A stretch of DNA of 64,000 nt from Rhizobium sp. Q54 (GTDB lineage: Bacteria > Pseudomonadota > Alphaproteobacteria > UBA2966 > CAIVPW01): assembly GCA_945904955.1 (NCBI GenBank), contig CAMDPO010000001.1:28293-92292 (forward strand), given 5' to 3'. Made by a program: the position numbers and the translations under genes. Below are positions 19,580 to 40,544 of this stretch, in pieces. How positions within the stretch are numbered: position 1 is the first letter of the stretch; every line of letters starts with the position of its first letter. The notes below the pieces were generated by a model that saw only the letters and a program-made list of their open reading frames with translations, made no database searches and was not told the DNA's origin.

Positions 19580-20791
19580 TCACAGCAGCATGGTCATCGG
19601 CTCCTCGAGGAAGCCTTTGACCGCCGTGAGGAATTGCGCGCCGATGGCGCCGTCGACGACGCGATGGTCGCACGACAGGGTGCAGCTCATGACGGTGCCG
19701 ATGGCGAGCGCACCGTGCTTGACGATGGGCCGCTTCTCGGCGGCGCCCACCGCGAGAATGCCGGCCTGGGGCGGATTGACGATCGCGCCGAAGTCCTTGA
19801 TGCCGTACATGCCAAGGTTGGAGATGGCGAAGCCGCCGCCCTGGTACTCCTCGGGCATCAGCTTGCCGGCGCGCGCCTTCTCGGCGAGCGCGCGCATCTC
19901 GGCCGAGATTTCGGCGAGACCCTTGGCGTCGGCGCGCCGGATGATCGGCGTGATGAGGCCGTTGGGCAGCGCGACGGCGATCGCAACGTCGATCGATGAC
20001 AGGCGCAGCGTGCCGGCCGTGGTCCACTGCGAGTTCATCTCCGGCACCTTGCGCAAGGCGAACGCGACGGCGCGGATGACGAAGTCGTTGACGCTGAGTT
20101 TCGTTCCTTCGCCCGCGCGCGCATTGAGTTCGGCGCGCGCCTCCATGAGGCGATCGACGATGCAATCGACGTTCAGGTAGATGTGCGGGATCGTCCGCCA
20201 CGCTTCGCTGAGACGCTCCGCGGTGATGCGGCGGACGTTGTTGTATGGGAGCAGAGTGCCCGCTTCGCTCGGCGACGCCGGCGCCTTTGCAGCGACGGCC
20301 GCCCGCGACGCGCCGGCAAGGTCGCGCTGCACGACGCGGCCGCCGGGGCCGGAGCCCTTCAGCGACGCAAGATCGATGCTTTGCTCTTTGGCGAGCTTGC
20401 GCGCGAGCGGACTCGCCAGGACACGGGCCGAGCCGTTTGGCTTGGGAGCGGCGACCGAAGTCGCGGCGGGCGATGCGACCGCCGCGGGCCTGGCAACCGG
20501 CGCCGTCGCTGCCGGCTTCGGTGCGCGATCGAGGACGGACTTGTCCTCGCCCTCTTCGAGCAGCATGGCGATGACGCTGTTGACCTTCACGCCGGCGGCG
20601 CCGGCGGGGACGACGATGCGGCCCAACGTGCCGGCGTCGACGGCTTCGAGTTCCATGGTCGCCTTGTCGGTCTCGATCTCGGCGATGACGTCGCCCGCCT
20701 TGACCACGTCCCCTTCCCGCTTGTGCCACGTCGCCAGGCGGCCTTCGGTCATGGTCGGCGACAACGCCGGCATGGTGACGGGAATCGGCAC
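19580..20791 (-). CDS. pdhC: pyruvate dehydrogenase complex dihydrolipoamide acetyltransferase (E2)
   Basis: Lipoyl domain ([13 protein letters not shown]), Ala/Pro-rich linker, E3-binding domain and catalytic domain (SCDHRVVDG). Confidence 0.9.
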   Translation of the reverse strand: MPIPVTMPALSPTMTEGRLATWHKREGDVVKAGDVIAEIETDKATMELEAVDAGTLGRIVVPAGAAGVKVNSVIAMLLEEGEDKSVLDRAPKPAATAPVARPAAVASPAATSVAAPKPNGSARVLASPLARKLAKEQSIDLASLKGSGPGGRVVQRDLAGASRAAVAAKAPASPSEAGTLLPYNNVRRITAERLSEAWRTIPHIYLNVDCIVDRLMEARAELNARAGEGTKLSVNDFVIRAVAFALRKVPEMNSQWTTAGTLRLSSIDVAIAVALPNGLITPIIRRADAKGLAEISAEMRALAEKARAGKLMPEEYQGGGFAISNLGMYGIKDFGAIVNPPQAGILAVGAAEKRPIVKHGALAIGTVMSCTLSCDHRVVDGAIGAQFLTAVKGFLEEPMTMLL

Positions 20792-22161
20792 TAGCGGTAC
20801 AGTACGGCCTTCGCCGCCGCGACGACGTGCTCGGGTTTCGGCAGCGCGAGCTTCTCGAGGTTGGCAGCGTAGGGCAGCGGCACGTCCTGGCCGGTGACGC
20901 GCGTCGGCGGCGCGTCGAGGTCGTCGAACGCGTGCTGCACGACCAGCGCGGCGATCTCGGCGCCGAGGCCGGCGGTCGGCCAGCCCTCTTCAACCGAGAC
21001 GATGCGGTTGGTCTTGCGCACCGACGCGAGGATGGTGTCGAGGTCGAGCGGGCGGAGGGTGCGCAGGTCGATGACCTCCGCTTCGATGCCATCCTTGGCG
21101 AGCTCGTCGGCCGCCGCGAGCGAATGCGCGACGCTGAGCGAGTGCGCCACAATGGTGACGTGCCTGCCCTCACGGGCGATACGCGCCTTGCCGATGGGAA
21201 TCACGTAGTCGCCGGTCGGCACTTCGAACGAGCGGCCGTAAAGCAGCTCGTTCTCCAGGAACACGACCGGGTTCGGATCGCGGATGGCCGCCTTGAGCAG
21301 GCCCTTCGCGTCGGCCGCCGTGTACGGCGAAATCACCTTCAGCCCCGGCACGCTGGCGTACCACGCGGCGAAGTCCTGGGAGTGCTGCGCGGCGACGCGC
21401 GCGGCGGGTCCGTTCGGTCCCCGGAACACGATCGGCACCGGCATCTGGCCGCCCGACATGTAGAGGGTCTTCGCCGCCGAATTGACGATGTGATCCATCG
21501 CCTGCATGGCGAAGTTGAACGTCATGAACTCGACGATCGGCTTGAGCCCCGCGTAGGCAGCGCCGACGCCAACGCCGGCGAAGCCGTACTCGGTGATCGG
21601 CGTATCGACGACGCGACGCGGACCGAACTCGGCGAGCAAGCCCTGGCTGACCTTGTAGGCGCCCTCGTATTGCGCGACCTCTTCGCCCATCAGGAAGACG
21701 TCGGGGTCGCGGCGCATCTCTTCGGCCATGGCGTCGCGCAACGCTTCACGCACGGTCTGCGTCACCATGGCACCAGCGGCCGCAGGCTCCGTCGACTGGG
21801 CCTTCGGCTTGGTGGGCTCCTTGATCGGCACCGGCTTTTGCGCAGGCGGCGCCTTGACGGGCTTCGGCTCCGGAGCGGGCCCCTTGGGCGGCGCCTTGTC
21901 GAGCGCTTCCTTGCCCTCGCCGTCATTCAGGAGGAGCGCGATGATTTCGTTCACCGGCACATCGTTGGTGCCTTCCGGGACAACGACTCTACCGAACACG
22001 CCATCGTCGGCAGCTTCCAGCTCCATGGTCGCCTTGTCGGTCTCGATTTCGGCAATCACGTCGCCGCTGGCCACCTTCTCGCCGACCGACTTGCGCCAGC
22101 GCGCGATGCGCCCGTGAGTCATGGTCGGCGACAACGCCGGCATGCGGACGGCGGTGGGCAC
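20791..22161 (-). CDS. pdhB: pyruvate dehydrogenase E1 beta subunit with N-terminal lipoyl domain
   Basis: N-terminal lipoyl domain ([11 protein letters not shown]), PK-rich linker, then the transketolase-like E1 beta core. This is the typical alphaproteobacterial form. Confidence 0.9.
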
Positions 22162-23605: not shown

Positions 23606-23627
23606 GCGTTCAGAGAATCATGTCGGG

Positions 23628-23730
23628 CGACAAAAAACAACGCCTGGATTGCTTCGCTTCGCTCGCAATGACCACTGTCATTGCGAGGAGCGCAGCGACG
23701 AAGCAATCCAGACGTTGTTCCTTTTTGTCG
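23628..23730. repeat. near-perfect 103-bp palindromic element (DCFASLAMT-type alphaproteobacterial repeat)
   Basis: The outer arm cgacaaaaaacaacgcctggattgcttcg and the inner arm gcttcgctcgcaatgac are both mirrored around a cactg centre. Spurious ORFs translate it as LDCFASLAMT. Confidence 0.7.
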
Positions 23731-23749
23731 GTGGTCCGCTCACCACTCC

Positions 23750-34963: not shown

Positions 34964-35070
34964 ATGGATGCGCGGGTCAAGTCCGCGCATGAGGGCCTTG
35001 GGGCTAGTCCTACCGCGGCACCGTTGCCCCACTCTTCGTCATGCGCGGGCTTGACCCGCGCATCCATCAC
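34964..35070. repeat. composite inverted repeat: two copies of a 29-bp hairpin unit (GATGGATGCGCGGGTCAAGYCCGCGCATGA) in opposite orientation with a 47-bp spacer
   Basis: Copy 1 is at about 34964-34992 and copy 2 (reverse complement) at about 35038-35066. Each unit is itself a 9-bp-stem palindrome. It translates as MRGLDPRIH / MDARVKPAH in spurious ORFs. Confidence 0.7.
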
Positions 35071-35094
35071 TGCGGCGAAATCGTACAGGTCTTC

Positions 35095-35340
35095 TCAGTT
35101 CGGGTTCGCCTGGACGATCAGGTCGATCTTCCGGGCACGCGGCCAGTGCTTGATGTTCTTCTCGCGTTGCAGCGCGACGCGAATGTCTTGGTGACGCTCA
35201 ACGTAGACGAGACGCTTGAGGCCGTAGCGTTTCGTGAATCCTTCGACGAGGCCTTCGCGGTGCTCCCACGCACGCTTAGCGATGTCGCTCGTCACGCCGA
35301 CGTACAGCGTGCCGTTCGGCGTGTTGGTATGTAGACCCAT
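35095..35340 (-). CDS. GIY-YIG nuclease family protein (small, about 82 aa)
   Basis: GIY-YIG motifs TLYVGVTSDIAKR ... YGLKRLVYVE ... KNIKHWPR. The start is taken at the internal Met (MGLHTNTP). The longer ORF to 35394 begins inside hairpin copy 3. Confidence 0.72.
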   Translation of the reverse strand: MGLHTNTPNGTLYVGVTSDIAKRAWEHREGLVEGFTKRYGLKRLVYVERHQDIRVALQREKNIKHWPRARKIDLIVQANPN

Positions 35341-35367
35341 CCGCCCACCGCCATCGTTCGCTCTGCG

Positions 35368-35396
35368 ATGGATGCGCGGGTCAAGCCCGCGCATGG
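35368..35396. repeat. third copy of the 29-bp hairpin unit (perfect palindrome ATGCGCGGG-TCAAG-CCCGCGCAT)
   Basis: gatggatgcgcgggtcaagcccgcgcatgg lies immediately 5' of the GIY-YIG gene on its coding strand. Confidence 0.7.
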
Positions 35397-35402
35397 CGGT
35401 GA

Positions 35403-35981
35403 CTATACGGCCGACGCCGCCTCTTTGAGCGGCGCGCGCGTTGCCAGCAGCGCCTTAATCTGCTGGATCGCGGCGTTGACCCGTTCGACCATGACGCGGT
35501 CGGCGTTGGTGACCTGGCCCTGGAACACGAGGTTGCGGTAGCGGTTCAGGTCCAACAAGTCGGCGTAGAACGCGCGGTCGATCGCCGCGGCGCCGCGCAG
35601 TGCTTCGGCCAGCTCGCGGAAGCAGCCGCGGCGAGCTCGTAGCGCGCAGGGTTGACGTCGAGGATCGCCGTCGAGATGACGAGCACCGACTTGCCCGGAA
35701 AGTCCCAGCGATTGGTGAACAGGACCGTCAGGCTGAGCACCATGCCGAGGCCCGTCAGCGCCGCCAGGCGGTAGGGGTCGTGATGGTAGCTGGAGGCGCA
35801 GCTCGGAATGCGCGTCCGCCAGCGACTCATCGCGCGCGCGGCGCGACTCCATCAGGCTCAGCACGACCGCGTATCCGGTCAGCAGAAACACAACGAACGC
35901 GGAGATGCTCTGCGCCGCCGCGCTGAACGTCCAGTAGATGAACTCGCTGTCAGCTGCGACGCCTGCTTGCGTTCTTCGCAA
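35403..35981 (-). pseudogene. probable frameshifted or fragmented gene for a membrane-anchored hypothetical protein
   Basis: ORF 35403..35981 has a plausible N-terminus (TM helix FVVFLLTGYAVVLSLM) and C-terminus (AIDRAFYADLLDLNRYRNLVFQGQ). Its middle is Arg/Pro/Gly-rich out-of-frame junk. A plausible middle segment (DPYRLAALTGLGMVLSL...VNPARYELAAA) is in a different frame (ORF 35546..35830). Confidence 0.3.
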
Positions 35982-35992
35982 AGGAGGGCGCG

Positions 35993-37252
35993 CTAGGCGC
36001 GCCGGGCACGATCGAGCAGGAGGGCACGCTCGCGCGCGTTGCGCGTGAGGGAGGCGGCGCGCTCAAACTCCGCCTTTGCCTCTTTGTTGCGGCCAAGCTT
36101 AGCGAGGAAATCGCCGCGCACCGCGGGAAGCAGGTGGTAGCTCTTGAGAGCAGGAATGCCGACGAGGGTGTCGATGATCTCCAGGCCCGCGGCAGGCCCC
36201 GAGGCCATGGAGACGGCGACGGCGCGGTTGAGCTCCACGACCGGGGACGGCGCGATCGTCCCCAGCGCCGTGTAGAGCGCAACGATGCGCGGCCAGTCGG
36301 TAGCATCCGCGGTCAACGCGCGCGCATGGCAGGCCGCAATCGCTGCCTGCAGCACATAGGGACCGGTCGGTTCCCCGATCGCCTCCGCGCGCGCCAGCGC
36401 GCGCAAGCCGCGGCCGATGAGCAGGCGGTCCCAGCGGGCCCGGTCCTGCTCCAACAGCAGGATGGGCTCGCCTCCAGGCCCGGTGCGTGCCGCCGAGCGC
36501 GACGCTTGAATCTCCATCAGCGCGACGAGGCCATGCACCTCGGGATCGGTGGGCGTCAGCTCGGCGAGGATGCGGCCGACCCGCAACGCCTCCTGGCAGA
36601 GCTGCGGACGCATCCAGTCGTCACCGGCGGTGGCCGAATAACCCTCGTTGAAGATGAGGTAGATCACCTCGAGGACCGAGCTGAGGCGATCGCCGCGTTC
36701 CGCACCACGCGGCACTTCGAATGGCACCTTGGCGTCGGCAAGCGCGCGCTTTGCCCGCACGATGCGCTGGGCGATGGTCGGCTCCGGCGTCAGGAAGGCG
36801 CGCGCGATCTCGTCGGTGGTGAGGCCGCCCATGACGCGCAGGGTCAGCGCCAACCGCCCTTCCGTCGCCAGTAGCGGATGGCATGCCGTGAAGATCAGGC
36901 GCAACAGGTCGTCGCCGATGTCGTCGTCCAACGCGGTGTCGTAGTCCGGCACCGCCAGCTGCTGGTCGATCTCGAGATCGCGCCCGATCTCCTCGTGCTT
37001 GCGCTGCTTGAGCTTGCGGTGGCGCAGGCGGTCGATGGCGCGCCGCTTGGCTGTTTGCATCAGCCACGCGCCCGGGTTGGCCGGGACTCCGTCCGTGCGC
37101 CAGCGCTCCAGCGCGGTCACCAAGGCGTCCTGCGCCAGCTCCTCGGCCGCGCCGACGTCGCGCACCATGCGCGCGAGGCCGGCGATCAGCCGGGCCGACT
37201 CGATCCGCCAGACCGCGTCGATGGCGCGGTCTACGTCGCGCGCATCGCCCAC
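35993..37252 (-). CDS. ECF-type RNA polymerase sigma-70 factor with long C-terminal extension (about 419 aa)
   Basis: Sigma region 2 (AEELAQDALVTALERW...RRAIDRLRHRK) and region 4 (LTTDEIARAFLTPEPTIAQRIVRAKRAL), followed by a C-terminal domain of about 230 aa. Its start is 2 nt after the yciI-like stop. Confidence 0.8.
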   Translation of the reverse strand: MGDARDVDRAIDAVWRIESARLIAGLARMVRDVGAAEELAQDALVTALERWRTDGVPANPGAWLMQTAKRRAIDRLRHRKLKQRKHEEIGRDLEIDQQLAVPDYDTALDDDIGDDLLRLIFTACHPLLATEGRLALTLRVMGGLTTDEIARAFLTPEPTIAQRIVRAKRALADAKVPFEVPRGAERGDRLSSVLEVIYLIFNEGYSATAGDDWMRPQLCQEALRVGRILAELTPTDPEVHGLVALMEIQASRSAARTGPGGEPILLLEQDRARWDRLLIGRGLRALARAEAIGEPTGPYVLQAAIAACHARALTADATDWPRIVALYTALGTIAPSPVVELNRAVAVSMASGPAAGLEIIDTLVGIPALKSYHLLPAVRGDFLAKLGRNKEAKAEFERAASLTRNARERALLLDRARRA

Positions 37253-37254
37253 GA

Positions 37255-37812
37255 CTACTTCTTCTTGGCGCGCTTGGCTTTCGCTGGCTTCTTGGCCTTC
37301 CCAGGCTTCTTGCCGACGGCCTTCGCGGGCTTGCGCGCTTTGGCGGCCTTCTTGCCCTCGGCGTAGACCATGCGCGCGCCCTTCGCCTTCTTCGCGAGCT
37401 TCTGGCCGAGCTTCTTGTGGCGCTTCACCGCTTTGTTGTCACCGAAGTCGTCGAGCTCGAACAGCTGGCGAAGCTCGATCTCGCCCTCGCCATCCATGTG
37501 CCCACCCGACTCGTAGGGAACGCGCTTCGCCCACTCGATCGCTTCCGCTTTCGAGCGCACATCGACGATCCAGTAGCCGGCGATCAGCTCCTTGGCTTCA
37601 GCGAACGGGCCGTCGATCACCTTCGGCGCCTTGCCGGCGGCGAAGCGGACGCGCGCGCCCTTGTCGCTGGCCTGCAAGCCGGTGCCGTCGATGAGGATGC
37701 CGGCCTTGGCCAAGCTCTCGTTGTACTTGGCCATGGCGGTCAGCGTTCCCTCGCTCGGCAACACGCCCGCCTCGGTGTCCTTGTTGGCCTTGACCATCAT
37801 CATGAATCGCAT
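37255..37812 (-). CDS. YciI-like (DGPF/Dabb-fold) protein with Lys/Ala-rich histone-H1-like C-terminal tail
   Basis: Start MRFMMMVKANK with GGAGG 5 nt upstream. The core of about 125 aa has the YciI pattern (GILIDGTGLQ...PKVIDGPFAEAKELIAGYWIVDV...AIEWAKRVP). The 60-aa tail is KAVKRHKKLGQKLAKKAKG...KKPGKAKKPAKAKRAKKK. Confidence 0.7.
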   Translation of the reverse strand: MRFMMMVKANKDTEAGVLPSEGTLTAMAKYNESLAKAGILIDGTGLQASDKGARVRFAAGKAPKVIDGPFAEAKELIAGYWIVDVRSKAEAIEWAKRVPYESGGHMDGEGEIELRQLFELDDFGDNKAVKRHKKLGQKLAKKAKGARMVYAEGKKAAKARKPAKAVGKKPGKAKKPAKAKRAKKK

Positions 37813-38005
37813 CGCGTCCTCCGGAGTTCGTGCACGGTACCGCGCCGCTTCATCGACGGGGATATGCCGCCGTAGCAGTGCGTTCGTCCGACGACCCGTC
37901 GTTAGCATGGCGCAGGCAATAGCGGCGACCACGTTCGGCACCCAAAGCGCCACGCTCGACGCGCTGCAGTAGCCGGACGAAGGCCGCCCTTGAACGGAGG
38001 CCTGC

Positions 38006-39628
38006 ATGCTGGCGAACAACACGGTTGGCGCCCCTTCCCTGCGCCTCGGCACCCCCCTTCGCACGGGCGTGGTCGCCCTGCTGGCCGCTACTACCGGCCT
38101 GACTGCGGTGCCTTCGCGTGCCGCCGATGTCGTCTCGCTCAGTTCGCTCACCTCGCATCGCGCCAACTACCGGCTGGCCATGGCGGACGTCGATCGGCGC
38201 ACCGGTATCCAGTCCATCGAGGCGGACTGCACATCGAGATGTAGCGTTCGTGCAGCGGCACGATCGAGACACAGCAATTTGCTGTGGACCCGGACCGGGT
38301 ACACCGACGGCCGCGTGCGCGAGGAACGCACCGCCGTCGGCCTCGATGAGAATCCGCGCACCCAGGCGATGAACTTCGAGACGCGCCGCACCCGCGATGC
38401 GCGCACAGAGGATTTGCCGGGCCGGCCGCAGCTCAATTTCGGCACGCGCTTGCCGGACGAGGCGCGCGTCGACACGTTCTCCGGCCGCGCCCAGCCGGCC
38501 ACCGGACGCAACGCCCGCGGCACCCAAGTGGCGTTCACCTCGCCCAATGGCTGGACGATGCCCATCCCCGCCGGGACAGTCTTCCCCGCCGAGTACACCC
38601 GTACCCTCGTCAACATGGGCGCCACCACGGAAGCCCAGCGCTCGATGCACCTCTTCGACGGCGCGTCGACCAACGGGCTGTATCGCGTGGTCGCCAAGAT
38701 GGTGGGCGCGGTGCCAAAGGACCAAGCGGTCCCCGAGGCCGGACGCACCGACCTCGGCGGCCGTACGTCGTGGCGCTATGAAGTCGAGCACTTCGCGCCG
38801 GGCGCGGCCGACGCCGCGCCGGAGTACACCGCCAACTACCAGATGTTCGACAACGGCGTGATCGGCGAATTGGCGCTCGACTACGGCACCTATCGCCTGG
38901 ACGGTGACCTGCGCAGCCTCGAGTTGCTGGCGGCGCCCGACTGCGGCCGTGGCCCGACAGTGCTCGCGACGGCTACGCCGCCGCGTGGCACTACGCTGCC
39001 CACTGGTCGCACGAGCGGGCCGACACCGCCGCAGATGACCGCCGGGACGGACAGTGGCGGCAACATCTTCGCGCGCACGGCCGCGGCATTCTTCGGAGGT
39101 GTCGAAGGTGCAAGCCTGGCCGCGGATGAGCCGAACGGGGAGGCGGTCGCGGAGTATGAAGAGCTCACGATCGACGACGAGCGCTGCCGGCGCGCGCGGC
39201 CCCACCCGAATTGCCAGGTCGATGCCGCCGAGCCGGCGGGCGTCGCTCAGACTGCCGGATTGCGGCCGCAGCCGCCGCAGCCGACCCCCGGCCCGGGACC
39301 AGGCAACCCAGCGCCGAATCCCAATCAGACCGCGGCCACCTCTCCTGCGCCGCCCGCACCGGCGGGCGGCGTCCGCATCACGGTGCAGCGCGGCACCGCT
39401 TTGCAGGGAGTGGCGCCCTCGACGAGGACGGAAACGACGGCCACCGCTACGGCGCGGGCCACTGTACCTGCGCCCACAACCACGACCGCGGCTGCGACCA
39501 CCAACGGAACTACGGCGGCGAGAGCGGCCACCACGGCCGCAGCTAGCGCGGCCGCAAGGGCGGCGGCGAATCTTAGCGGCTGGCGCGAGCGATCAGGTCG
39601 GAGTTTGGAGCGGACACCAGGGCGCTGA
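38006..39628 (+). CDS. secreted hypothetical protein, possibly EipB/DUF1849-like, with long Pro/Thr/Ala-rich C-terminal low-complexity region
   Basis: Signal peptide (ALLAATTGLTAVPSRAAD). The core of about 300 aa has two Cys (ADCTSRC ... APDCG) that could form a disulfide. The C-terminal 200 aa are PQPPQPTPGPGPGNPAPNP / TTTAAATTNGTTAARAATTAAASAAA. The 3' end overlaps the convergent deacetylase gene by about 55 nt. The family call is tentative. Confidence 0.4.
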   Translation: MLANNTVGAPSLRLGTPLRTGVVALLAATTGLTAVPSRAADVVSLSSLTSHRANYRLAMADVDRRTGIQSIEADCTSRCSVRAAARSRHSNLLWTRTGYTDGRVREERTAVGLDENPRTQAMNFETRRTRDARTEDLPGRPQLNFGTRLPDEARVDTFSGRAQPATGRNARGTQVAFTSPNGWTMPIPAGTVFPAEYTRTLVNMGATTEAQRSMHLFDGASTNGLYRVVAKMVGAVPKDQAVPEAGRTDLGGRTSWRYEVEHFAPGAADAAPEYTANYQMFDNGVIGELALDYGTYRLDGDLRSLELLAAPDCGRGPTVLATATPPRGTTLPTGRTSGPTPPQMTAGTDSGGNIFARTAAAFFGGVEGASLAADEPNGEAVAEYEELTIDDERCRRARPHPNCQVDAAEPAGVAQTAGLRPQPPQPTPGPGPGNPAPNPNQTAATSPAPPAPAGGVRITVQRGTALQGVAPSTRTETTATATARATVPAPTTTTAAATTNGTTAARAATTAAASAAARAAANLSGWRERSGRSLERTPGR

Positions 39629-40544
39629 CCGGAACGAGAACGAAGCCCCGTTCGGCAAGGGTCGGCAGCCATGCCTCGAGGGCAGCGAGCGTCGCGACCT
39701 TCGGATGCCCGATGGCAATGGCGCTACCATCGCGGCGCGCGACCGCTTCCAGCTCGCGCAGCCGAGCCCCGATGGCCTCGGCGGTCTCTTCGTTGTCGAG
39801 GAACACGTCGCGCGACAGGAACGGCACGCCGGCGGCACGGCTCGCCGCCCGGCCGACGGTGTGGCCGGTGGTGACCGAATCGAGGAACAGCAGGCCGCGG
39901 CGCGCGAGCGCGCGCATCAGCACGTCCATAGCGGCCCGGTCTGCGGTGAAGCGGCTGCCCATGTGGTTGTTGATGCCGACGACACCATCGATGCCCGCGA
40001 TGCGATCCAGCGCCCAGTCGATGCGGCGCTGCAACTCGGCACCCGTCTGGCCGAGCAACAGGACATTGATGCCGGGGTCGACGTCCCAGACCTCTGGCTC
40101 CATCGGCACATGCAGCATCAGCTCGTGGCCCCTGCCCCGCGCCGCCGCTGCCATGCCGGGAAGATCAGCGGCGTAGGTCATCAAAGACAGGGTGAGCGGA
40201 CCGGGCAGCGCGACCGCGCGGCGCGCGTTCGGCACATGGACCCCGACGTCGTCGATGACCACGGCGATACGCGGACGACCGTCGGGAATCGCGGCTACGG
40301 CCATCAAGGGAAACGCCGCAACGGCCCCAACCGGTTCCAATGCGGCCGGCGACTCAGCCGAGGGCGGCGGCACAATGTTGGCGGTGATGGCGACGCTCGC
40401 CGGCTCGGACGGCCGCGCCAGAGTCGCGATGCTGGCGCCGATGCCCGCGCCCATACCCACCGCAGAAAGACCTGCGACCACGATGGCAACCCAAACCGGT
40501 CGCCGCAGGGCACGCGAGACAACGCGAAGGGGACGGCGTCGCAC
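39573..40544 (-). CDS. divergent polysaccharide deacetylase family protein (YibQ-like)
   Basis: N-terminal TM anchor plus a domain with AVVIDDVG...LHVPMEP...INNHMGSRFT...LFLDSVTT motifs. Confidence 0.72.
   Translation of the reverse strand: MRRRPLRVVSRALRRPVWVAIVVAGLSAVGMGAGIGASIATLARPSEPASVAITANIVPPPSAESPAALEPVGAVAAFPLMAVAAIPDGRPRIAVVIDDVGVHVPNARRAVALPGPLTLSLMTYAADLPGMAAAARGRGHELMLHVPMEPEVWDVDPGINVLLLGQTGAELQRRIDWALDRIAGIDGVVGINNHMGSRFTADRAAMDVLMRALARRGLLFLDSVTTGHTVGRAASRAAGVPFLSRDVFLDNEETAEAIGARLRELEAVARRDGSAIAIGHPKVATLAALEAWLPTLAERGFVLVPVSALVSAPNSDLIARASR

Follow-up and report, generated by a model that had tools for sequence, protein, structure and literature searches.

A lysine-rich C-terminal tail on the YCII/DGPF partner of an ECF42 sigma factor

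Introduction

Why does a small protein encoded directly ahead of a sigma factor end in a long lysine-rich tail, and is this tail a genuine part of the protein? The question is raised by a locus in a stretch of 64,000 nucleotides (nt) from Rhizobium sp. Q54 (assembly GCA_945904955.1, contig CAMDPO010000001.1, positions 28,293 to 92,292; hereafter, the window), in which the gene of a 185-amino-acid (aa) protein of the YCII/DGPF family is followed on the same strand by the gene of a sigma factor of the extracytoplasmic function (ECF) group ECF42. An earlier interpretation based on the letters of the window only (the sequence-only reading) described the two genes as a known conserved but uncharacterised pair and noted a tail on the YCII protein. 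The locus is a standard unit of an ECF42 sigma factor and a YCII (DGPF) protein, already known and common, and its novelty is the tail on the YCII partner.

Composition and origin of the tail

The C-terminal residues 125–185 of the YCII protein, DNKAVKRHKKLGQKLAKKAKGARMVYAEGKKAAKARKPAKAVGKKPGKAKKPAKAKRAKKK, contain 38% lysine, 23% alanine and about 5–8% proline and have a net charge of +25, and the YCII domain preceding them has a net charge of -4 and an isoelectric point of 5.1. At the lysine background of 3.4%, calculated from ten other proteins of the window, the probability of 23 lysines in 61 residues is ~1.6e-18. A comparable stretch rich in lysine, alanine and proline was not found in any other open reading frame (ORF) of the window; among 5116 ORFs of 161 related loci it was found in one, the ortholog from the metagenomic locus L081.

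The tail had been described as 60 aa long, and the sequence quoted for it agrees exactly with residues 125–185, of which ~22 belong to the normal C-terminal helix of the family and only ~39 are new. Residues 125–146 are homologous to the 19–23-aa end of the closest relatives, PSEAVDRHRELGKKLxKKK, with acidic residues swapped for lysine, and a helix at residues 127–142 is predicted by AlphaFold2 with a predicted local distance difference test score (pLDDT) >90. Residues 147–185, with a pLDDT <50, hold a conserved motif, given for this segment as R-[MT]-V-Y-A-[EG]. Imperfect K-P-[AG]-K-A units occur in the tail only three times, and in the alignment of tails the 18-nt tandem repeat accounts for a 7-aa insertion peculiar to the lineage of the window. 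The extension is a lineage-specific, selectively maintained appendage of the acidic YCII domain, predicted to be intrinsically disordered, and gives the protein, together with the basified helix, its highly charged end. Comparison with the relatives indicates an origin of the tail in three steps: the helix already present became basic, the stop codon shifted by ~40 codons downstream, and slippage duplicated the 18-nt unit.

Conservation of the tail among assemblies and lineages

The tail was found in further assemblies and in diverged lineages. The contig L166 (Logan ERR5863121), 4937 nt in length and obtained from an independent run, is identical to the window, and an independent gene caller predicted on it the same two genes as in the window. 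The third assembly, L165, differs by 1 nt, which corresponds to the substitution M148T. Three diverged metagenomic lineages also encode the tail: L081 (protein of 176 aa), L164 (173 aa) and L162/L163. The frame of the tail is kept in all three, with insertions and deletions that are all multiples of three, and a stop codon after the ancestral helix is absent from each of them. The four tail lineages have in common the core KAVxRHKKLGxKLAKKAK-x(2-3)-[RK]TVYAG[ST]KKAAKAKKPA, followed by a variable basic end; the length of the tail is about 49–61 aa across lineages, and the C-termini are variable.

The pooled ratio of nonsynonymous to synonymous divergence (dN/dS), calculated by the Nei–Gojobori method at a synonymous divergence of 0.39–0.47 (the proportion of synonymous differences, pS, being 0.36–0.60 in the extension), was 0.17 for the domain, 0.28 for residues 125–146 and 0.39 for residues 147–185, the values being rough, since only ~30–55 codons of low-complexity sequence with an uncertain alignment were compared. 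For the GC content at third codon positions (GC3), a value of 0.92 was obtained in the tail, compared to 0.90 in the domain. Judging from these comparisons, the tail is clearly translated and constrained. A frameshift, named in the sequence-only reading as a finding that would refute it, does not agree with the occurrence of the same frame in two further assemblies and three diverged lineages; the second possibility named there, that the lysine-rich region is a separate ORF, is not borne out either, since it is never a separate ORF within the tail clade.

Occurrence of the tail among YCII proteins

The question of whether the lysine/alanine tail is specific to a lineage had been put forward as a check, and the answer is positive. 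The tail is absent from ~250 other YCII ORFs of 160 related loci, which include the loci of its sigma relatives. In 80 genome loci of the closest sigma relatives among the matches listed, belonging to Acidobacteriota, Actinomycetota, Myxococcota, Gemmatimonadota, Pseudomonadota and other phyla, no YCII tail longer than 38 aa and no basic tail was found. The 80 closest metagenome relatives of the YCII protein, 52–67% identical to it, all stop 19–23 residues past the domain, with the sequence PSEAVDRHRELGKKLxKKK or a near variant, and such a tail is absent from all 80 of these metagenome loci.

A query with the full-length protein was swamped by proteins with two YCII domains, and the tails were therefore examined by a repeated search with the C-terminal 99 residues. 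In this exhaustive phmmer search of residues 87–185 against 1.84 billion representative proteins, only one protein, P0121, representing the tail clade as a cluster at 50% identity, was aligned through the tail. The remaining alignments end at the ancestral helix. The few exceptions are fragments, ORFs that seem to be frame-shifted and an unrelated protein with repeats, and all of these lack a richness in lysine and alanine. A search with the tail only against a collection of 5.8 billion proteins yielded one candidate and no match, the word index being probably unsuited to low-complexity queries. No published link between YCII proteins and lysine-rich tails was found in the literature. Within the collections searched, the tail is lineage-specific, and narrowly so; judging by its gene content, the lineage is probably alphaproteobacterial.

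Table 1. Features of the locus of the YCII protein and the ECF42 sigma factor (coordinates in the window)
Feature	Coordinates	Strand	Basis
Coding sequence of YCII/DGPF protein with basic tail, 185 aa + TAG stop	37255..37812	-	ORF, sequence, PF03795
YCII (DGPF) domain, residues 1-124, acidic	37441..37812	-	Pfam, AlphaFold2, Foldseek, alignment
Ancestral C-terminal helix, residues 125-146 (DNKAVKRHKKLGQKLAKKAKGA), net +8	37375..37440	-	Homology, AlphaFold2
Lineage-specific Lys/Ala/Pro extension, residues 147-185, net +17, predicted disordered	37258..37374	-	Absence from relatives, AlphaFold2
18-nt tandem repeat, 2.2 copies, AAGCCTGGGAAGGCCAAG on coding strand = K-P-G-K-A-K	37273..37312	-	Tandem Repeats Finder
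Gene junction AAGAAGAAG-TAG-TC-GTG	37250..37266	-	Sequence
ECF42-type sigma factor, 419 aa, start GTG at 37252	35993..37252	-	Pfam
Intergenic region between YCII gene and EipB-like gene, with ribosome-binding site and conserved blocks	37813..38005	.	Alignment of 5 upstream regions
EipB-like divergent gene, 540 aa	38006-39628	+	PF08904 at residues 155-308 only

The YCII domain

The YCII gene starts with ATG at 37812, preceded by the ribosome-binding site GGAGGA (37817-37822), and ends with the stop codon TAG at 37257-37255. The Pfam profile PF03795 (YCII) matches residues 1–105 with an E-value of 2.6e-16 and 60.3 bits at a cut-off of 24, and the IDGPF motif is located at residues 66–70. In an alignment of 106 sequences, all invariant columns of the family are retained in the 185-aa protein. 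The AlphaFold2 model of the domain has a pLDDT mostly >85, and its top match in the PDB is 1S7I (PA1349 of Pseudomonas aeruginosa), with a Foldseek probability of 1.00, an E-value of 9.8e-07 and a target-normalised TM score of 0.69; the two proteins also match by sequence (E-value 5.6e-08). HI0828, TftG and ClcF are among the further Foldseek matches. The profile, the motif and the predicted ferredoxin-like alpha+beta fold assign the 185-aa protein to the YCII/DGPF family. The DGPF motif and the fold, predicted for the protein of the window, are common to it and to PA1349, HI0828, TftG and ClcF, whereas these four are only about 90–125 aa in length and lack a basic tail. Chloroaromatic intermediates are the substrates of the enzymes TftG and ClcF; the YCII–sigma locus is not flanked by genes of such a pathway.

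The top-scoring relatives of the domain are proteins of 270–300 aa with two tandem YCII domains (P0002-P0120, e.g., P0004, P0009 and P0025), joined by the conserved linker DFPVDPAEKPDGWREKEEQFR; this architecture is widespread.

The sigma factor and the ECF42–YCII module

The sigma factor contains Sigma70_r2 (residues 22–80), Sigma70_r4_2 (121–171) and DUF6596 (189–289; PF20239, E-value 2.2e-36), followed by ~130 residues. Its core consists of the sigma2 and sigma4 domains only, region 3 being absent, and is matched by TIGR02937 (sigma70-ECF) with 46.2 bits at a cut-off of 42.9. The C-terminal extension comprises ~235 aa, in agreement with the long extension noted from the sequence. Matches to the tetratricopeptide repeat (TPR) profiles TPR_8, TPR_21 and TPR_2 at residues ~379–405 are all below the gathering scores (E-values 0.002–0.011), and matches in the PDB span the ECF core only.

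Relatives of the sigma factor among the matches listed are 62–75% identical, have the same length and belong to many phyla. In 48 of 77 of them, a YCII ORF of the same strand ends upstream at a distance of at most 200 nt, and in 70 of 77 a YCII ORF is located within 4 kb; together with published descriptions (PMC8999054, PMC6180224), this agrees with the claim of a known conserved pair. The word 'uncharacterised' does not apply to ECF42 itself: its C-terminal extension is essential for activity and is proposed to act by protein interaction, regulation of the group is believed to run through this extension, and the YCII neighbour is its suspected, unproven partner (PMC8999054). SVEN_0747/4377/7131 of S. 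venezuelae, ECF-10 of P. putida and RpoE10-SMc01151 of S. meliloti have the same sigma architecture (sigma2, sigma4 and a C-terminal extension of ~235 aa containing DUF6596 and a weak TPR signal), with a YCII gene upstream on the same strand; the unit in the window is set apart from these modules by a partner with the +25 tail, composed of the basified helix and the 39-aa extension.

Similar to anti-sigma factors, which had been named as a possible analogue, the YCII protein is encoded beside an ECF sigma factor and co-transcribed with it. Unlike them, it has no anti-sigma domain (ASDI/ZAS or other class), the YCII domain being the only one detected with Pfam and NCBIfam, and its gene is located upstream and not downstream of the sigma gene. 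The ORFs flanking the operon match EipB_like or GIY-YIG or have no Pfam match, although a divergent anti-sigma factor could escape a profile search.

The gene junction

The 2-nt gap between the stop codon of the YCII gene and the GTG of the sigma gene, from which translational coupling had been proposed, was found both in the sequence and in the predictions of the independent gene caller on the identical contig. The last three lysine codons form a purine-rich stretch (AAGAAG) 5 nt before the GTG, which resembles a Shine–Dalgarno (SD) sequence and probably acts as one; because of this stretch, coupling by termination and reinitiation is plausible in the genome of the window. In L162 the genes are arranged in this way as well, the gap being 1 nt.

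In two of the four tail lineages, L081 and L164, a palindromic element of ~115 nt is located between the two genes (L081 1400-1526, L164 1457-1529). The element resembles repetitive extragenic palindromic sequences or miniature inverted-repeat transposable elements (REP/MITE), its predicted hairpin having about -63 to -64 kcal/mol, and its arms (GTCATTGCGAGGAGCGCAGCGACGAAGCAATCCAG) match, at 97% identity, those of a copy located in the window at ~23625-23735, upstream of the enolase gene. Therefore, on the junctions compared, tight coupling is no conserved property of the tail clade, whose members keep the tail even where coupling is missing. Consensus scans revealed neither promoter-like nor terminator-like sites between the YCII and sigma genes, in agreement with co-transcription; within 35300-38300, sigma70-type promoters and intrinsic terminators were likewise not found.

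Possible role of the tail

The locus is a standard ECF42 operon whose remodelled YCII tail would anchor the protein to a polyanion, most likely DNA, an interpretation to which we assign about an even chance. The YCII/DGPF gene, first, and the sigma gene, second, are co-transcribed. The tail would bind electrostatically and without specificity, its most likely target being the chromosomal DNA, with RNA or polyphosphate as alternatives; in this way, a YCII protein that is otherwise soluble would be concentrated on the nucleoid, the place at which RNA polymerase and the co-expressed sigma factor act. The YCII domain would keep its ordinary role related to small molecules. In the genome of the window, the 2-nt junction and the SD-like AAGAAG probably couple translation of the sigma factor to that of the YCII protein, a feature dispensable in the clade.

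We infer the binding of a polyanion from the composition of the tail and from the precedents of Ku/Hlp, AlgP and DdbA. Lysine-rich PAKKA tails of M. smegmatis Ku and Hlp bind DNA, and their repeated origin on unrelated proteins was proposed (PMC3553676); the KPAA domain of P. aeruginosa AlgP localises to polyphosphate granules and was proposed to link the granules to the chromosome (PMC9239181); in Streptomyces DdbA, a domain similar to histone H1 is fused to a DksA-like modulator of RNA polymerase (PMC3643593). The tail of the YCII protein is similar to these in its lysine/alanine/proline composition, in disorder (predicted in the present case), in the terminal position on a conserved protein, in growth by short tandem repeats and in lineage-restricted occurrence, and, as in DdbA, a module related to transcription is combined with an H1-like segment. 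It differs from them in being shorter, with 39 new residues and 61 in total against about 100–154 aa, and in its location on a protein without known nucleic-acid function. The resemblance to AlgP and H1 pointed out in the sequence-only reading thus holds for composition and does not extend to a profile match or to the length and regularity of the repeats, since three imperfect K-P-[AG]-K-A units and 39 aa are to be compared with 154 aa in AlgP (PMC9239181).

A number of observations weigh against anchoring. A long KPAA/PAKKA array of about 100–150 aa is absent, with only 2.2 copies of the 18-nt unit and three proline-containing units. The tail has no match in Pfam (E-values up to 10) or NCBIfam (E-values up to 1), although this test weighs little, H1-like, AlgP and Hlp tails being defined by composition. 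YCII proteins are not known to be connected with DNA. The dN/dS values on which the argument for constraint draws are rough, as noted above. In L162/L163, an 8-nt duplication, ATCGATGG ATCGATGG, at the IDGPF codons (L162 ~740-800) breaks the YCII frame, and gene callers split the gene into ORFs of 78 and 95 aa; the duplication is present in two assemblies (L163 is NCBI GCA_005802045.1, SXGR01206874.1) and may represent either a real pseudogene, the protein being dispensable there, or a faulty assembly or common read error. In S. meliloti, overexpression of RpoE10 did not lead to a rise of its own YCII-rpoE10 operon (PMC6180224).

Of the other explanations, neutral expansion of low-complexity sequence survives best, and we regard it as rather unlikely but serious. 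The stop codon would have been lost and the sequence lengthened by slippage, giving a peptide tolerated owing to its disorder and solubility, while any selection would act on nucleotides, e.g., those of a purine-rich ribosome-binding region and a tight junction ahead of the sigma gene, and not on a function of the peptide. The 18-nt tandem duplication, the variation in tail length, the variable C-termini and the absence of any profile match agree with it, as do the looser constraint compared to the domain (dN/dS 0.39 vs. 0.17) and the position of the terminal AAGAAGAAG, which immediately precedes the start codon of the sigma gene both in the window and in L162. However, TVYAG with its flanks is kept in four lineages at a pS of 0.36–0.60 in the extension, and the helix was independently basified by changes of glutamate and aspartate to lysine, which slippage cannot explain. 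Moreover, the tail is kept in L081 and L164 despite the palindromic element, and thus it is not merely an initiation region.

TPR-type repeats typically bind short extended peptides, and a specific partner is conceivable in view of the conserved TVYAG motif. The tail may be a docking peptide, in which TVYAG, held in a flexible basic linker, would be recognised by RNA polymerase or by the TPR-like extension of the sigma factor, the latter being switched on or off; we consider this improbable. The tight linkage of the YCII and sigma genes and the presence of a conserved non-basic motif inside a compositional tail are in its favor, as is the essential ECF42 extension, for which a partner is proposed and YCII is suspected (PMC8999054). 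On the other hand, the tail is absent from all other ECF42-associated YCII proteins examined, and docking is thus not a general mechanism; the TPR assignment is below the threshold; and the sigma extension, with a net charge of +2, shows no acidic shift relative to its relatives (mean -3.0, sd 2.8), being at the basic end of their range. There is thus no charge fit between the tail and the extension, which argues against a simple electrostatic docking of the tail. A bolder form of the anchoring interpretation, which we likewise hold to be a long shot, combines both ideas: the tail would make the YCII protein a nucleoid- or polyphosphate-tethered cofactor of ECF42, in which the domain senses or converts a small molecule, while the tail, by its charge and TVYAG, brings the protein to DNA or RNA polymerase, so as to engage the TPR-like extension of the sigma factor there.

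Degradation via polyphosphate and Lon has been proposed for lysine-rich ribosomal proteins, and a degradation or sequestration signal is conceivable here as well: the tail would bind polyphosphate accumulated in starvation, leading to delivery to Lon or trapping in granules and to a link with nutrient stress. The dense positive charge, the predicted disorder and the location of the AlgP KPAA domain on polyphosphate granules (PMC9239181) are consistent with this signal, whereas no polyphosphate genes are linked to the operon in the window, and we consider it very improbable.

Finally, a frameshift artefact or mis-called ORF, with the true protein stopping after the normal helix, might be suspected from a low-complexity tail in a high-GC genome and from the antisense ORF of 162 aa (36878-37366, +) overlapping it, and was rejected as next to impossible on account of the identical 4937-nt contig, the assembly differing by 1 nt, the in-frame diverged lineages without a stop after the helix, the dN/dS <1 and the GC3 in the tail frame.

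Upstream region and neighboring genes

The blocks GCCATGCTAACGA (37899-37911) and CATATCCCCGTCGATGA (37850-37866) upstream of the YCII gene are conserved in all four tail lineages, including L162 with a different upstream neighbor. A match to the consensus of sigma70 or of ECF42 is absent from both blocks, which may represent an operator or an unusual promoter.

RpoE10 (ECF42) of S. meliloti activates promoters with the sequence TGTCGG-N17-CGTC (PMC6180224). The motif TGTCGG-N~17-CGTC was not found on either strand in 37780-38040, which covers the 193 nt upstream of the YCII gene, even when a single mismatch was tolerated in the -35 element, a search that tests autoregulation and not the specificity of the sigma factor. 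In this respect, the window is similar to S. meliloti, in which a functional ECF42-type promoter is likewise not evident ahead of the operon (PMC6180224). In the whole window, five matches to the ECF42-type motif were found against 2.6 expected, which is not significant. Since the motif is absent upstream of the operon, neither autoregulation nor the gene at 38006 as a target receives support.

Two near-identical ECF42-type matches, TGTCGGTCTCGAT[CT]TCGGC[GA]AT[GC]ACGTC, are located at 20665-20692 and 22035-22062 (+), opposite the minus-strand ORFs 19580-20791 and 20791-22161, which have similar N-termini and may be paralogous genes of lipoyl-domain proteins. Chance similarity of coding sequences, and not promoter function, most likely accounts for the matches.

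The divergent EipB-like ORF has a signal-peptide-like N-terminus and, after the EipB_like match, ~230 residues of low-complexity sequence rich in proline, alanine and threonine; its 3' end overlaps the convergent polysaccharide deacetylase gene (39573-40544, -) by 56 nt. The EipB-like gene is absent from the locus in L162, where the YCII gene has the polysaccharide deacetylase gene as its immediate upstream neighbor, and it is therefore placed outside the conserved unit. This gene, suggested earlier as a possible target of the sigma factor, finds no support as such: it lacks an ECF42-type promoter motif and is absent from this position in L162.

The GIY-YIG ORF 35095-35394 (-) is located within 34964-35430, where the peptide 'MRGLDPRIH' is encoded both by a plus-strand ORF (from 35041) and by a minus-strand ORF (from 35394), which suggests that inverted repeats bracket most of the GIY-YIG gene, overlapping its 5' end. 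No Rfam families were found in the window.

Significance

ECF42 is among the most widespread ECF groups, and YCII is the standing suspect for the protein partner of its essential extension (PMC8999054). Should the tail be no more than tolerated, an ordinary ECF42 operon would remain. If the YCII protein is a tethered cofactor, the lineage would be a natural gain-of-function variant exposing the long-suspected physical link between YCII and ECF42. The pair of tailed and tailless YCII proteins offers a cheap handle on whether YCII proteins act at DNA or at RNA polymerase. The locus also provides a clean, small example of the birth of a disordered basic tail by charge reversal of a helix, displacement of a stop codon and 18-nt slippage.

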